NCBI GenBank assembly: GCA_964016885.1
Contig: OZ024745.1
Location: forward strand, 48,422,001-48,486,000
Reading direction: 5' to 3'
Length of the DNA: 64,000 bases
Origin: Eledone cirrhosa
Taxonomy: Eukaryota
Shown: piece after piece, positions 34,266 through 39,622 of the stretch
How the letters are laid out: every line of letters begins with the position of its first letter
Numbering within the stretch: position 1 is the first letter of the stretch
Translations under genes and position numbers: made by a program
Notes under the pieces: generated by a model
What the model was told of the DNA's origin: nothing
What the model saw: the letters and a program-made list of their open reading frames with translations, nothing else
Database searches by the model: none

Positions 34266-34459
34266 GGGAACCAGTAGGACCCCGACGGCTGAGCTCAAGC
34301 CGTTTCGACGGCTAATTCTGGACTCAGAATTAGCCGTCGAAACGGCTTGAGCTCAGCCGTCGGGGTCTTACTGGTTCCTATTACCCACTCTACTACCCCA
34401 AGTATTGAGTACTTTGGTGCGTTATGGTTCACCTGGTTCCTTACCACATTTCCTTCGTT
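34266..34459 (+). mobile_element. TA-flanked element with a 54-bp-arm hairpin containing the 3' half of a hammerhead ribozyme
   Basis: Arms 34267-34320 and 34325-34378 (one G-T pair, loop GACT). GAAA-CGGCT-tgagctc-AGCCG-TC at 34339-34361 forms stem III plus the GUC triplet. Confidence 0.7.
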
Positions 34460-35009
34460 ATATATATATATATATATATATATATATATATATATATATA
34501 TATATATATATCCAAATATAAACGGAGTCAAAGACTCTCATTATTCCATGTAAATTATGTGCTCAAAGGAAAAGGAATCCTGAGCTCTTCAAAATACAAT
34601 ATGTAGAAAGGATAAGACGCTAGAGAGAGATAGAGTGTGTGCGATCACAGGGAAACCACCAGTGTATGGAAACTATGGAAGGTAAGGTAGACACATAATA
34701 ATTAAAAATATAAATCAAAACGTGTATACGCACCTCTATAACTATATAACACACACGTACATCATCATCACATAGAAATGACTTTTACAGTACTAGAACT
34801 ATTTCATTTATTTGAAATCATCAGTATGAAACATCTCTAGTCCTTTAGAAGTTATTTATATATTAAATAAATACATGCCTTCTCTAGTAATGTCTTGAGT
34901 GCCATATTGAACTGTGGTTCTGTTCCATTCTTCTTTCGAAAATCATAAAACTATTTTCAAATATGTATATATATATATGTATATATAAATGTAATCTGAG
35001 TTTTTCGAA

Positions 35010-35353
35010 TCATCATCATCATCATTTCATTTTACGTCCACTTTTTCCCTGCTTGCAAGGGTGGGACGGGAACTGATTTTGGCTTGATTTCTACAGCTGG
35101 ATGCCTTTCCTAACACCAACCTCATTTACAGTGAGTGCTGGGTGCTTTTTTGCCGTGACACCTCCACGACCACTTTGTAGTGGAATGATAGGGACCCCAG
35201 TCCCTATCATCTCATTTCTACAGCTGAGTAAACTGGAGCAATGTGAAATAAAGTGTCTTGCTCAAGGAAACAACACATCACCCGGTCTGAGAATTGAACT
35301 CACAACCTTTCGATTGCAAGGCCAATGCTCTTACCGCTAAGCCATGTGCCTCC
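35010..35353 (-). mobile_element. Full-length tRNA-SINE with RTE tail (same family as 20631-20970)
   Basis: Reverse complement matches 20631-20970 over its whole length. Confidence 0.88.
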
Positions 35354-35455
35354 ATTAATAATAATATTCGATTCGTTTGCAATAAGCCTCATTTTTAAAG
35401 CCATGTCAGTAGAATGAGCCCCTCATTCTTGCTCTTGTGTTGGCATGTAAACAGA

Positions 35456-35500
35456 ACTGCAGACACTAATGTTTCTGAGTATAACCCTTTATCAGTACTG
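35456..35500 (-). ncRNA. Degenerate type I hammerhead ribozyme motif
   Basis: Minus strand: cagta-CTGATAA-a-gggt-tat-actc-a-GAAAC-attagt-GTC-tgcag. One core substitution (G8A), and stems I-III can largely form. Confidence 0.55.
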
Positions 35501-36202
35501 TTTACTGTTCACCTGCCAACTGTCAGAGCTAGTGAAAATATATGATATTTTCTAAAATATACAGTGACTGATCAGTCAGATCTGCATATTAGCAGATCCA
35601 CTGATCAACCAGATTTGCATATCAGCAGACTGGCCAGTCAGTTTCCTGTATACGAGCGATCAATGGCTGGCTTTGCCATATTCAAATACATACATATATA
35701 TATATATATATATATGTATGTATTCATGAGTGAATAATAATAATATAATAATACCATAATATTATTAATATTCGGTTTGTTTACAAGTAAACAGCCTCAT
35801 AAAACACCACATGGTAGATGAACAACTTCATCCTTTTGTTCCAGCAGTAGCTGAGAGAAAACAATTGACAATTGTTTCGGAGTGACTTGTTCCAAGATTG
35901 CGTATTCTCCTCACTTGATACTTGCTGGAACTGCTGAGAACACATAGTATTCTCAGATGTATACATCGGCTGATTAGTTTCATTTGCATTCATACCGAAC
36001 AATTTTACAGCTGGCTTTGCCAAAAATTATCCACCATGTTAAGAGCGAAAACAAATTTTGTTTTATATATATGTATATATATTTAGAATTTTGAGAAGTG
36101 ACACGCTAGTTGATATCTATTAGGAAAATGAGAAAATAGTAGAAAATGGTAACAGAATTTTATTATAGAAAAACAGAAAAACATTTTTTTAAAAACAATT
36201 TT

Positions 36203-36247
36203 TAGTACTGGTTTCACTTGATAAAAATTTCAACTTCTTCATACTAG
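36203..36247 (-). ncRNA. Degenerate minimal hammerhead motif (Penelope pLTR type)
   Basis: Minus strand: tag-t-ATGAAGA-agttga-aattttta-tcaagt-GAAAC-CAG-TA-cta. C3 is mutated, and ACCAGT is one transition from the palindromic ACCGGT. Confidence 0.5.
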
Positions 36248-36357
36248 ATAAAATGATAAAAAGTATATAATAAGGTTAAGGTGTAGTTCAATTAGAAGAG
36301 AATATTAGAGAACATAGTTTACATATATATAAATTCATATTTTCATTTATTTATTTA

Positions 36358-36699: not shown

Positions 36700-37004
36700 T
36701 GTTATATTTGGGGATGGTCATGTTGCCAATAAAACGAAATACACACACTATATGACTTTAACTTTTTCATTTTATCTTTATTATTAGTTATTCGTTAGTT
36801 CATGAAAGTTCTTTCTTCACACAGTCTGTGACCTCTTGAATGACTATTTGTTCTCTCCTGTGCTTCCTCTTCTTTCTGGTCTTAATTTGTTACTCCATCT
36901 TGGAATAACAGATTAACAGATTAAGTTGAAAAAGTGAAAATCATATGGTGTGTGTGTTTCTTTTATTGGCAATACTGGCAACATGACCAACCGCAAATAT
37001 AACA
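36700..37004. mobile_element. Non-autonomous TIR element with TGT...ACA ends (Ginger-like MITE)
   Basis: About 70-bp imperfect TIRs (TGTTATATTTG.GG.TGGTCATGTTGCCA... / ...TGGCAACATGACCAACCGCAAATATAACA) and 4-bp ATAT direct flanks. Confidence 0.65.
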
Positions 37005-37052
37005 ATATATATACACACACACACACACATATATATATATATATATATATAC

Positions 37053-37510
37053 ACGATATTAAACAAATGGAAACTATATTTATAAAATCATATTTATTTC
37101 ATTATACATATTTCAGGGATACCATATTAAAAATATGGCATGCCTTCTTCAGATAAAATACAATATATAAGCAGTTTTATAAATAAATTTGACGTACCAT
37201 AAATATTGTTCAACTTCCATTTAAAAAAGTTGGTTTGGTAGTTTTTTTTTAAATGGAAGTTGAACAATATTTATGGTACGTCAAATTTATTTATAAAACT
37301 GCTTATATATTGTATTTTATCTGAAGAAGGCATGCCATATTTTTAATATGGTATCCCTGAAATATGTATAATGAAATAAATATGGTTTTATAAATATAGT
37401 TTCCATTTGTTTAATATCGTATATCTACTCCAAAACTTGTTGAGTGCTTTATATCAGTTATAAAATATTTACTCGTTGTAACCCAACAATTTTAAATAAA
37501 ACTTTTGCAT
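37053..37510. mobile_element. Inverted pair of Penelope-like pseudo-LTR sequences (176-bp arms)
   Basis: 37053-37228 is the reverse complement of about 37243-37420 (about 1 mismatch), and each arm holds a hammerhead motif. TA flanks, with AATAAA near 37495. Confidence 0.7.
37317..37371 (+). ncRNA. Minimal type I hammerhead ribozyme with intact core (mirror copy at 37102-37156, - strand)
   Basis: tta-t-CTGAAGA-agg-c-atgccatat-tttta-atatggtat-c-cct-GAAA-tatg-TA|taa. Canonical CUGANGA/GAAA/UH boxes with a long stem II. Predicted cleavage after 37368. Confidence 0.7.
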
Positions 37511-37771
37511 ATATATATGCAGGATATCATTGGATATAGTTTCGCCTACCACAATGTTCGATTTGTCAAGCTATTTAAACGTATGCAGGATATCTGTAGA
37601 TAAAAGGCCAAGGAAAACAATGCTCAATCTATTGCAAGAGAGCTTATTTAGTATATTTAAAATTCTACACAGTTAACATGTATGCACAACCTTAGGTTTT
37701 GCGGTCCATGACAAGACCCCAAAACCTTAGGTAGCACATACATGTTAAGTGTATAAAATTTAAAATATACT

Positions 37772-38064
37772 ATATATATATATATGTGTGTGTGTGTGTG
37801 TGTGTGTGTGTGTGTGTGTGTGTGTGTGTGTGTGTGTGTGTGTGTGTGTGTGTGTGTGTGTGTGTGTGTGTGTTTGTGTGTGTGTTTGTGTGTGTGTGTG
37901 TGTGTGTGTGTGTGTGTGTGTGTGTGTGTGTGTGTGTGTGTGTGTGCATGTGTGTGTGCATATATATATATGCACACACACATACAGATACATACACACA
38001 CACATACACACATATATATATATATATATATATATATATATGCACACACAGAGACATATATATA
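37772..38064. repeat. (GT)n/(TA)n microsatellite
   Basis: Directly visible. A further (CA)n tract lies at about 38780-38885. Confidence 0.95.
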
Positions 38065-38330
38065 TCCGAAACAAATGAGGTCGTGTAGGTGTCACGACAA
38101 AAAAAACACACAGTCCACGCTGTAATGTGGCCATGTAGGTGACACGGTAAAAACCTCCCAGTCCACACTGTAAACGTGGTTGGTGTTAGGAAGGGCATCC
38201 AGCCATAGAAAACCCGCCAGACGGTCCTGAGCAAGACAACCAATCTTGACTCAAGTGGGACAATTCCTGTCCAGACCCATGCTAGCGTGGAAGATGGACG
38301 TTAAACGATGATGATGATGATGATGATGAT
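38065..38330 (+). mobile_element. RTE family A-related 3'UTR fragment with (GAT)n tail
   Basis: Matches 9167-9546 without the internal duplication. Confidence 0.85.
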
Positions 38331-39531
38331 ACATAAAACTACAACCATCACTCACAATAGAGTATGACTTGGTAGTATTTACCATGATATTTTGCTAAAG
38401 GTCTTAGGTGCTCATGCAGTTGTGAGCAGATACAGACACCCATCTCTTTTGATCCAATGGAACATCCAGGATGTGACAACTAGAAGGAAAGAGGCTTGTA
38501 CCGGCACTGGGCTGGTATTTCTTTATCAACTTCAAAATGATGAAAAGCAAAGTGGACCTTGGTAGGATTTGAACACAGATCTGGAACAAATATCCAATGC
38601 TCTGCCATACATATATATATGTATGTGTATATATATGTGTGTGTACGAGTATGTATATACCGTATGTACTTATGTGTATGTTGTAATGTTTTACTAAAAA
38701 TATCCAGTGTGAAAAACTGCATGTGACATATCTACAGAACCTTGTTCCCAGCCTAAAATTCACAGCTCTCATTAGCAAAACACACACACACACACACACA
38801 CACACACACACACACACACACACACACACACACACACACACACACACACACACACACACACACACACACACACACACACACACAAGCATACACACTAGTA
38901 TAGCTATACACATGTGCACATATGCATACACATACATACACTACATACAGGGATACACACATATGCATACATGCACACAAACACAGAGAGGCAAATGATT
39001 GAGTCTGTAGAGTGGGTTAGTCATGTTTGATGTCCTCTCTCTATAAATATCAGCATTGTAAACAAATATACACTGATGACATCTCGCGTAAAACAAAAAT
39101 GACTTCCACATGTACAAAATATATATGCACAGTTCTCAATTGGTCTACTGTAATCTTTAATGCCCATTAGACACAACATATATTGTCCCTCATTTAGAAA
39201 TGAGGATTTAAAAGCAATGGTTAATCTGGTTCTTTCGTGCATAAAAAACCCCATTAGTATGATTAGTAAGTACTAACATAGTGTGATTCATAATATATAT
39301 ATATATGTATATATATGTGTGTGTGTGTGTGTGTGTGTGTGTGTGTGTGTGTATATCTATATATATATATATATATCCATCTCAATTCTACTTTTGAAAA
39401 GCATAAGAACTGTGAAACCAGTAAAGGAAACAAATATAAATATTCTTAAAAAGACTCCAGTTACATTTTCGATTTCTTTTCCTTATATATATATAAATAT
39501 ATAAATATATATATATAAATATATATATATA

Positions 39532-39622
39532 GGGGTCCTGACTCTTCCTATTAGCCACTCTACTACCCTAAGTATCGAGTACTCTGGTGTATTATGGTCC
39601 ACCTGGTTTCTTACCACACTTT
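39532..39622 (+). mobile_element. TA-flanked relative of 34362-34452
   Basis: GGGGTC...TTCCTATTAGCCACTCTACTACCCTAAGTATCGAGTACTCTGGTG...CACCTGGTTTCTTACCACA aligns to the sequence downstream of the GTC at 34361. Confidence 0.8.

Follow-up and report, generated by a model that had tools for sequence, protein, structure and literature searches.

Clustered hammerhead motifs in Eledone cirrhosa read as 3′-end fragments of Penelope-like elements, with 5′ ends of one family at the predicted cleavage site

The window analysed here is a 64,000-nucleotide stretch of Eledone cirrhosa DNA (assembly GCA_964016885.1, contig OZ024745.1, positions 48,422,001 to 48,486,000, forward strand). Between positions 34266 and 39622 it holds a cluster of hammerhead ribozyme motifs, which we read, with a probability of about 80%, as a nest of 3′-end fragments, each a pseudo-long terminal repeat (pseudo-LTR) with its tail, left in (TA)n runs by at least seven families of Penelope-like elements that would insert through two complementary DNAs (cDNAs), the parents of families A and B being autonomous and Hydra-type. 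The class is already known, including from octopus, and the cluster is debris of Hydra-type and other Penelope-like elements, not a new non-coding class. New here is that family A copies have 5′ ends concentrated at two points, an initiator-like site and, to the base, the predicted hammerhead cleavage site. The region is a patchwork of short repeats separated by TA, CA and AAG runs, and contains the following elements.

34266..34459, both strands: family A head-to-head insertion in (TA)n, with the 3′ half of a hammerhead on each arm.
34772..34950 (boundaries approximate), unstranded: family C, old palindromic insertion; CUGAUGA core at 34824-34818(-), cut near 34786, stems decayed.
34989..35686, minus: family D, split by a short interspersed nuclear element (SINE); hammerhead at 35495-35462; no parent found.
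35740..36050 (boundaries approximate), minus: family E, related to D; hammerhead remnant at 35898-35867; no parent found.
36090..36420 (boundaries approximate), minus: family F; decayed hammerhead-like motif at 36243-36206; no parent found.
36650..37008, unstranded: family H, with a tailed minus arm and a tail-less plus arm; decayed hammerhead at 36840-36806(-).
37054..37508, unstranded: family B head-to-head insertion; intact minimal hammerheads at 37152-37103(-) and 37321-37370(+).
39377..39485, plus: family G; hammerhead at 39394-39423 with a U3-A8 core; parent clade not found.
39532..39625, plus: older family A copy following a TA run, 83% identical to 34362-34451.

A first-pass annotation of this DNA had listed seven or eight hammerhead-like motifs in otherwise dissimilar elements. 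All eight are present near the positions it gave, each belonging to a repeat family, and a ninth, decayed, at 36840-36806(-) had been missed; the families are several, as described, with D and E related to one another. The plus-strand 3′ half placed at 34339-34361 is there, together with a minus-strand mirror at 34324-34284 that had been overlooked. The core first assigned at 35862-35916 had to be given up: the CAAGUGA-like stretch lies further upstream and is not the core, which in this family is UUGACAA, with 5 nt lost from the window copy. A strict type I hammerhead descriptor, scanned over window positions 1-44,890, was passed by two of the eight motifs, 37321-37370(+) and 37152-37103(-), the two arms of a single inverted-repeat insertion of family B. 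Since only this pair passed, the remaining six were judged through their relatives. Local shuffles of 34266-39622 at three mismatch levels gave a mean of 0 to 0.1 motifs and never reached the observed count (0/40), and shuffled genomic blocks gave 0, so that the similar density in shuffled sequence named beforehand as a refutation is not seen. A check against Rfam models, also proposed there, went the other way, with no hammerhead at the gathering score and none at E<=10. The motifs are real but mostly decayed in the window copies.

Genome candidates in a first look numbered 1974 for A, 673 for B, 1253 for C, 724 for D, 1228 for E, 265 for F and 1481 for G, with 40 scored in each. In per-family alignments of the 13 best relatives, both catalytic boxes were intact in 11 (D), 10 (G), 7 (E), 6 (F) and 4 (C) sequences; relatives in these families keep the core, with an atypical box in F and a shortened stem I in C. 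Judged by boxes, a Watson-Crick 3-8 pair and three helices, the window itself offers a type I hammerhead in B only, and at family level the A parents, D, E, G and H have one; F is atypical and the short copies of C lack most of the 5′ strand of stem I. The window copy of D has G8 changed to A, its relatives being canonical CUGAUGA hammerheads with a stem I of 6-7 pairs. The E copy is about 85% identical to its relatives, in which the core is UUGACAA (U3-A8); an earlier view of E as a family without a true core was dropped once this core was found. In relatives of F the 5′ box is atypical (Y-A-UGAAGA), stem II has 6 pairs and stem III is palindromic. In G the core UUGAAAA is fixed, U3-A8 occurs in 24/24 descriptor matches, and relatives have a long upstream region. 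One relative of H lies 270 nt downstream of a GIY-YIG frame that is not Hydra-type in appearance.

That these are minimal type I hammerheads of Penelope-like origin in several families is supported, as the first-pass annotation had it. Here and below, comparisons with cited papers refer to the accessible parts of those papers. Like the minimal hammerheads of metazoan Penelope-like elements (Cervera and De la Peña 2014, PMC4209133), ours are type I with a short palindromic stem III, belong to many families per genome, occur mostly as solo truncated copies or opposite-strand pairs (100-700 bp apart in that work) and have an extra base before stem II; the U3-A8 variant is already known there from Schistosoma Cercyon. 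The 5′ box of family F is unlike the hammerheads described in that paper.

Evidence for parent elements comes from elsewhere in the genome. The annotation saw no Penelope open reading frame (ORF) in the window, in agreement with tblastn, where element proteins gave no window match. Family B inverted pairs 2.6-4 kb apart flank a frame encoding reverse transcriptase (RT) with a GIY-YIG endonuclease at the C terminus (loci L061, L063 and L069), and the short B arms are 99-100% identical to these ORF-bearing parents. The L061 frame contains the motifs RWR, DKT, YRDD, CxCx5C, CxxC and CxH, a set also present in the A parents; the parental motifs read DKTNNLY, CNCRNKSKC, CDLC and CRH in family B, and DKTGNLY, CNCPDRSSC, CNLC and CKH in family A (L275, L276 and L278). 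The A and B proteins are 43% identical over 477 amino acids. The family B protein has 87 homologues, those named including Argonauta and Octopus; Pfam found nothing above threshold on the parent proteins, with a sub-threshold RVT_1 match in homologue P0027 only. All ten family A inverted pairs that were fetched enclose Hydra-type coding sequence, and the window insertion at 34266..34459 has as its parent an autonomous Hydra-type element with a U3-A8 core. The full family A hammerhead with this core was first seen in L132 and L091, and its 18-nt 5′ part has 627 exact genome matches. A search for the missing 5′ half of A with a CUGANGA pattern had given 13 matches, fillers and chimeras only, the real core being UUGANAA.

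Hydra is a TA-targeting, hammerhead-bearing Penelope-like clade that includes Hydra-1_Obim of Octopus bimaculoides (Craig et al. 2021, PMC8557442). Its elements share with the A and B parents a single ORF with RT followed by GIY-YIG (seen in L061 and L276), DKT in place of DKG, the CxCx5C linker, CxxC plus CxH in place of CCHH, a hammerhead near the 3′ end within the pseudo-LTR, (TA)n targets, and an inverted truncated copy with a one-sided tail; by eye, the parent frames fit the Hydra alignment in the supplement to that paper. The differences are a conservative one in the protein (RWR instead of RWK), length (about 3.5-4 kb owing to a 3′ untranslated region (UTR) of more than 1 kb, against generally <3 kb in Hydra, a typical and not a diagnostic value), tails of about 85-90 nt against 30-40, and, in family A, U3-A8 with a five-pair stem III against C3-G8 in all Hydra ribozymes of the accessible supplement list. 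Hydra-1_Obim has a hammerhead of different sequence, which makes the present families distinct from it. By motif comparison, the A and B parents are Hydra-clade Penelope-like elements. An assignment of family B to Naiad was dropped on the accessible text of PMC8557442. Naiad elements carry an N-terminal endonuclease and no canonical hammerhead, and the A and B parents have theirs at the C terminus.

For family C, a relative (f7) runs from hammerhead through tail into the start of a Hydra-type ORF. The search for linked GIY-YIG/RT ORFs that had been suggested succeeded for A and B (parents) and C (relative); in the DNA collected, none was linked to D, E, F or G and no Hydra-type one to H, and the D, E and G motifs are absent from the Naiad/Hydra consensus file of PMC8557442 as far as it was accessible. 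The annotation's picture of separate non-coding retroelement families is accordingly not supported for A and B, nor for C with its close ORF-linked relative; D, E, F and G, whose parents did not turn up in the DNA collected, may be non-autonomous. The short copies of A, B and C look like truncated or run-off products of ORF-bearing parents.

Some further arrangements were met among these loci. Five head-to-tail family A units of 273 nt, each beginning at -62 (relative to the cut site), spanning the tail and ending within the start of the ORF, form an array at L320 (G000:C3:214146300-214148600); lacking the 5′ half of the ribozyme, they would make a retrozyme-like array without a working hammerhead. 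The loci L071, L074, L075, L079 and L080, all selected by pattern, are chimeras: a 5′ end from family A continues into the hammerhead region of a different Penelope-like family, which suggests template jumps between families. Another family with a U3-A8 core, f9, whose stem III has four pairs, lies at L120 (700-1200), partially in tandem, downstream of a Hydra-type endonuclease fragment. In C and f7, stem I seems to covary between subfamilies (AGAUUC/GAAUCU versus GGCUUC/GAAGCC) in the few copies available.

The anatomy of the copies is uniform. Every family ends at one of two TA-like sites about 85-90 nt apart. What lies between them is the tail; in copies arranged in tandem this segment forms the 5′ UTR that precedes the ORF. 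In 57/57 inverted insertions scored, an arm with a tail faces an arm that lacks one: 10/10 long family A pairs, 20/20 fetched collapsed family A palindromes and 27/27 scorable of 30 short ones. The window B and H insertions obey the same rule. In the window, the tail-less family A arm occupies 34324-34266 on the minus strand and starts at an initiator-like site 41 nt before the cut site, and the tailed arm occupies 34325-34459 on the plus strand, starts 37 nt before the cut site and has its predicted cut at 34361/34362. The tail-less B arm (minus, 37242-37054) starts at a family 5′ site 140 nt before the cut and faces a tailed plus arm (about 37245-37508), and the tail of the C copy is on the plus strand at about 34870-34950. 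Insertion into (TA)n, as first annotated, is borne out by family B, where 43/43 ends enter TA, and by the 20/20 fetched family A palindromes in which the tail end does so. The ORF may sit in either arm, and spacers between arms range from about 10 nt to 4 kb.

We considered whether the palindromes could be miniature inverted-repeat DNA transposons (MITEs) whose likeness to hammerheads is chance in AT-rich DNA. The family B arms in the window, 183 bp at 98% complementarity within TA, and the silence of Rfam are what such elements would give. The arms, however, are made asymmetric by a fixed tail, the spacers vary over the whole range just given, the enclosed ORF is an RT-endonuclease, shuffled sequence is nearly free of motifs, and positions 3 and 8 covary; we therefore rejected an identity as MITEs or other DNA transposons as extremely improbable.

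The commonest family A junction has the tail-less arm reaching further 5′, and since this arm then holds the extreme 5′ end, folding back and copying it could not have produced the tailed arm. In one of the 50 palindromes listed, the arms come from two different subfamilies. In our proposal, an element enzyme would nick both target strands, and two cDNAs would be primed, one from each of the two RNA start sites that bound the tail; both would run to the RNA 5′ end and then join head to head at their 3′ ends. Two primed cDNAs are the simplest model, because of the one-tail rule and because of the two-strand, two-site result obtained in vitro with the green anole Poseidon element, whose enzyme cuts and extends both strands from two RT starts bounding the tail (Frangieh et al. 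2024, PMC11167929). Poseidon also resembles our elements in its AT-rich targets and in a ribozyme dispensable for insertion. It belongs to another clade, RNA reads were looked for at its cut site and not found, and the accessible text reports no strict one-tail pairing and no run-off to a fixed 5′ end. The antisense self-priming put forward in PMC3846280 fits so strict a rule less well than two primed cDNAs do. The priming sites would each lie just upstream of a repeated RNA motif, an arrangement that would yield inverted pseudo-LTRs, the one-sided tail and swarms of short palindromes.

A motif of this kind, CUCUAC...UUGAG(U/C)AC, was seen about 21-28 nt downstream of 5/6 initiation sites examined, and in A and B it is duplicated, once per site. 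The tails of family A (34386-34415 in the window), B (at 37420-37455), C and f7 carry it, as do L061 and L269, and the coral element Hydra-2_Amil ends with a similar motif (PMC8557442, supplement). We regard it as a candidate protein-binding signal that may position priming.

The 5′ ends of the copies are discrete. They are numbered from the predicted cut, +1 being the first base after GUC. A collection of 26 unselected family A arms was reduced to 23 (one arm each lost to a locus edge, a masked centre, and an extra G or slippage), of which 11 end at -40 to -45, 5 at -33 to -38, 5 at -1 to +3 and 2 further upstream, with none between -32 and -2. In family B, 36 arms extend to the edge of the query; 21 of them end between -117 and -146, with four exactly at -140, the query having hidden arms shorter than about -121. 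The window A and B copies start exactly at these sites, -41 and -140. The -41 base of A is the A of TCAGT inside loop II and the -140 base of B the A of TCACT; both sites fit the initiator consensus. An initiator-like TCACT site is also present in a rotifer pseudo-LTR (PMC3846280). A cap-derived G at the -41 junction is indistinguishable from the inverted-arm sequence. We infer that the -41 and -140 ends are transcription starts inside the pseudo-LTR. The RNA 5′ end would then mostly be set there, 41 nt before the cut in A and 140 nt in B, and the short palindromes would be run-off products of priming in the 5′ UTR.

Alternatively, the short palindromes could be self-propagating non-autonomous families, a few short master loci being copied in trans by Hydra enzymes. 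One A junction does recur in very many copies (all 40 of the 40 best matches, to a query that itself contained the junction), two sequence variants are far commoner in short copies than in full-hammerhead copies (the latter selected for a third variant), and D and E, parentless like F and G, share a common extent of 300-500 nt. From one copy to the next, however, the junction fillers vary about a single fixed 5′ point, as if each junction forms anew, full-hammerhead copies exist for the window's A variant, and the B arms match ORF-bearing parents almost perfectly. We consider such master loci unlikely.

The remaining family A ends concern the ribozyme itself. The analysis above would have most templates begin at transcription starts, and a minority in family A likely begin at the hammerhead cut. 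We collected collapsed palindromes with a pattern left open from +4 to about -12 on both arms, which returned 791 loci, and classed the first 50 by eye. Both arms end at +1 in 15 (12 with 1-6 nt of filler, mostly A/T, and 3 blunt), and +1 is paired with +2 or +3 in 5; the 20 loci of these two classes were fetched and confirmed. In 5 others an arm at +1 or -1 has its partner within 3 nt, in 3 an arm at +1 or +2 has its partner far upstream, 20 are stem III fold-backs and 2 are different. Untemplated A at a template end is expected when RT runs off cut RNA. Among 20 single arms joined to TA, again by eye, 7 start at +1 (six of them after T), 3 at -1 or -2, 5 at -13 to -15 and 5 elsewhere. Of 76 ORF-linked copies, 2 start at +1 and 1 at +2, with 9 at -36 to -45 and 26 beyond -450; if some 45 ends were spread evenly over 540 nt by truncation, three starts at +1/+2 would have a probability of about 7e-4. 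L278 is an additional ORF-bearing copy that starts at the cut site. In the older A subfamily 2/11 arms end at +1 (one chance match dropped), and the window copy at 39532..39625 does so too, beginning at the first base after GUC. The stem III of family A has five pairs, so that folding as a monomer would be possible, unlike in B, G and H, whose small samples showed no peak of this kind.

Ribozyme cleavage is moderately probable as the cause of the family A +1 ends, and the pile-up and the pairing of arms likely record hammerhead cutting in the living animal and two-primer reverse transcription, neither of which appears in the papers covered. We put it slightly above even odds that this amounts to the first in vivo record of a Penelope-like hammerhead, with hundreds of A insertions, ORF-bearing ones among them, made from RNA cut by a monomer-competent U3-A8 ribozyme and all inverted insertions two-primed. 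A possible alternative, which we hold at somewhat less than even odds, places the +1 ends at a second transcription start, at RT fall-off after a G run at the helix junction, or at a host nuclease site at an exposed C17. A C/G step suits a pyrimidine-purine start and a four-G run is adjacent; a subfamily with a C3-A8 mismatch has spread and the subfamily control described below is inconsistent. In the anole element the ribozyme is dispensable in vitro and no RNA-seq reads were found at the cut site (PMC11167929). On the other side, the 12 double joins with filler end at +1, whereas RT halting at the base of stem III would have left them at -1; structure by itself predicts a GUC that falls on this very base; and ends at this site are met again among palindromic, TA-joined and ORF-linked copies as well as in the older subfamily.

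Constraint on the core bears on the same question. Among 95 family A core matches, a set selected for UUGAUAA, 79 read UUGAUAA, 3 UUGACAA, 2 UUGAGAA (the core of the window's own A subfamily), 1 UUGAAAA, 6 CUGAGAA and 4 otherwise, one of the last not being family A. N7 varies among A subfamilies and the U3-A8 pair is kept in most, which, together with the genome-wide 3/8 pairing counts, suggests that the U3-A8 core is under constraint. The CUGAGAA subfamily, with loci at L291, L292, L298, L306 and L227, could be an intermediate between C-G and U-A pairs or an inactive ribozyme that still spread.

Several observations weigh against our interpretation of the ends and of the cluster. The CUGAGAA copies (6/95) have spread, and because some are ORF-linked an intact core is not required for spread; most A copies, moreover, start downstream of the 5′ box, and both facts mean that cleavage is not needed for insertion. 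The +1 position, a C/G step after four G residues, satisfies a loose transcription-start rule, and the 3 blunt joins of 15 double +1 joins could be explained by CG overlap. The subfamily control is inconsistent: +1 is rarer in one A subfamily among palindromes (2/17 vs 18/32, p 0.003) and not among TA-joined copies (3/9 vs 4/11, p 1.0). The family A hammerhead has a predicted energy of -25.5 kcal/mol, 2.4 above the minimum-energy fold at -27.9, and taken in isolation the A, E and G motifs have no folding advantage over shuffled sequence (z -2.3 to +1.0 over all motifs). Small samples from other families have no +1 pile-up (G 0/18, f2 0/31, H 0/21, D 0/8), in a test blurred because several of the cut sites are preceded by TA or lie across a palindrome. 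Four families (D, E, F, G) lack a parent in the DNA collected. Finally, the long TA arrays at window 600-19,300 (607-19330, up to 4.9 kb) contain no hammerhead-family insertion; since these huge arrays are empty, TA targeting alone is insufficient to explain where the cluster lies.

How unusual the cluster is was assessed against eight 100-kb blocks of the 3.0-Gb genome, seven at arbitrary positions and one directly upstream of the window. A descriptor allowing C/U at position 3 and G/A at position 8 had 66 matches in these 800 kb (C-G 56, U-A 6, U-G 3, C-A 1), against 0.67 per 800 kb in shuffled blocks; the 3/8 pairing bias has a Fisher p of 6e-6, on copies that are not independent. All DNA collected gave 256 descriptor matches in 41 clusters, four of them set aside as likely chance. 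Family queries found 189 motif copies in the blocks (6-51 per block, mean 1.27 per 5,357 bp; shuffled 0) and 11 in the window, all inside 34264-39448, with a query library partly derived from the window's own families and so biased in its favour. Among equal-size non-overlapping windows, 1/144 had 10 matches and five had 6, and insertions are overdispersed (mean 1.02, variance 1.89). The cluster is the top of a clumped genome-wide background, a dense spot that is ordinary for this genome and not a unique locus; nesting into TA runs is the likely cause of the clustering. At 189 per 800 kb, the genome as a whole would hold an estimated several hundred thousand fragments derived from hammerheads. 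Such fragments escape Rfam and can be mistaken for MITEs, and descriptors fixed on CUGANGA overlook U3-A8 families. A repeat paper on Octopus vulgaris (PMC13282606) counts Penelope-like families and, in its accessible part, mentions neither hammerheads nor Hydra.

The main value of these data lies in the family A end statistics, which make the role of the ribozyme directly testable. In R2 elements, cutting by a ribozyme resembling that of hepatitis delta virus sets the 5′ end of some genomic copies and is the normal route; family A differs in ribozyme class and retroelement, and the cut would be a minority route. The role of the hammerhead in endonuclease-bearing Penelope-like elements has been called unclear (PMC8557442), and PMC4209133 states that evidence of cleavage in vivo is lacking, in contrast to the pile-up of family A ends at the cut site. 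We found no report of copy 5′ ends at a hammerhead cut site in a literature search that was light on subscription papers. Tallying where copies begin relative to the predicted cut needs genomic sequence only and can be done on any genome; natural controls exist in the present one, where stem III is stable in some families and minimal in others and the core is paired in some subfamilies and mismatched in others. Family f9, with its four-pair stem III and U3-A8 core, would serve well as a second place to look for the +1 footprint.

Animal non-LTR retrozymes (bioRxiv 10.64898/2026.07.22.740005) likewise have type I hammerheads from Penelope-like pseudo-LTRs. They form head-to-tail arrays with a hammerhead in each unit, whereas the window copies are single or head-to-head, mostly with half or decayed hammerheads; no tandem array of these units, and hence no series of tandem units with complete hammerheads, occurs in the window.

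A few neighbouring features complete the region. A palindromic element at 37510-37770, assigned to no family, may hold a tenth motif, a decayed U3-A8 hammerhead near 37545-37590(-), with only two partial relatives in the DNA collected. Inside the ATT repeats of family D, a tRNA-derived SINE (35011-35355) parts the 3′ end (34989-35010) from the body; an Rfam search gave a tRNA-like match within it at 35287-35344, and a similar SINE lies at 20633-20970. From 44891 to 64000 the window is occupied by a 48-bp satellite (398 copies, 95% matches) that is 72-90% similar to a SINE segment found at 9175-9225, 11070-11141, 17543-17614 and 38074-38174, and is probably derived from it.

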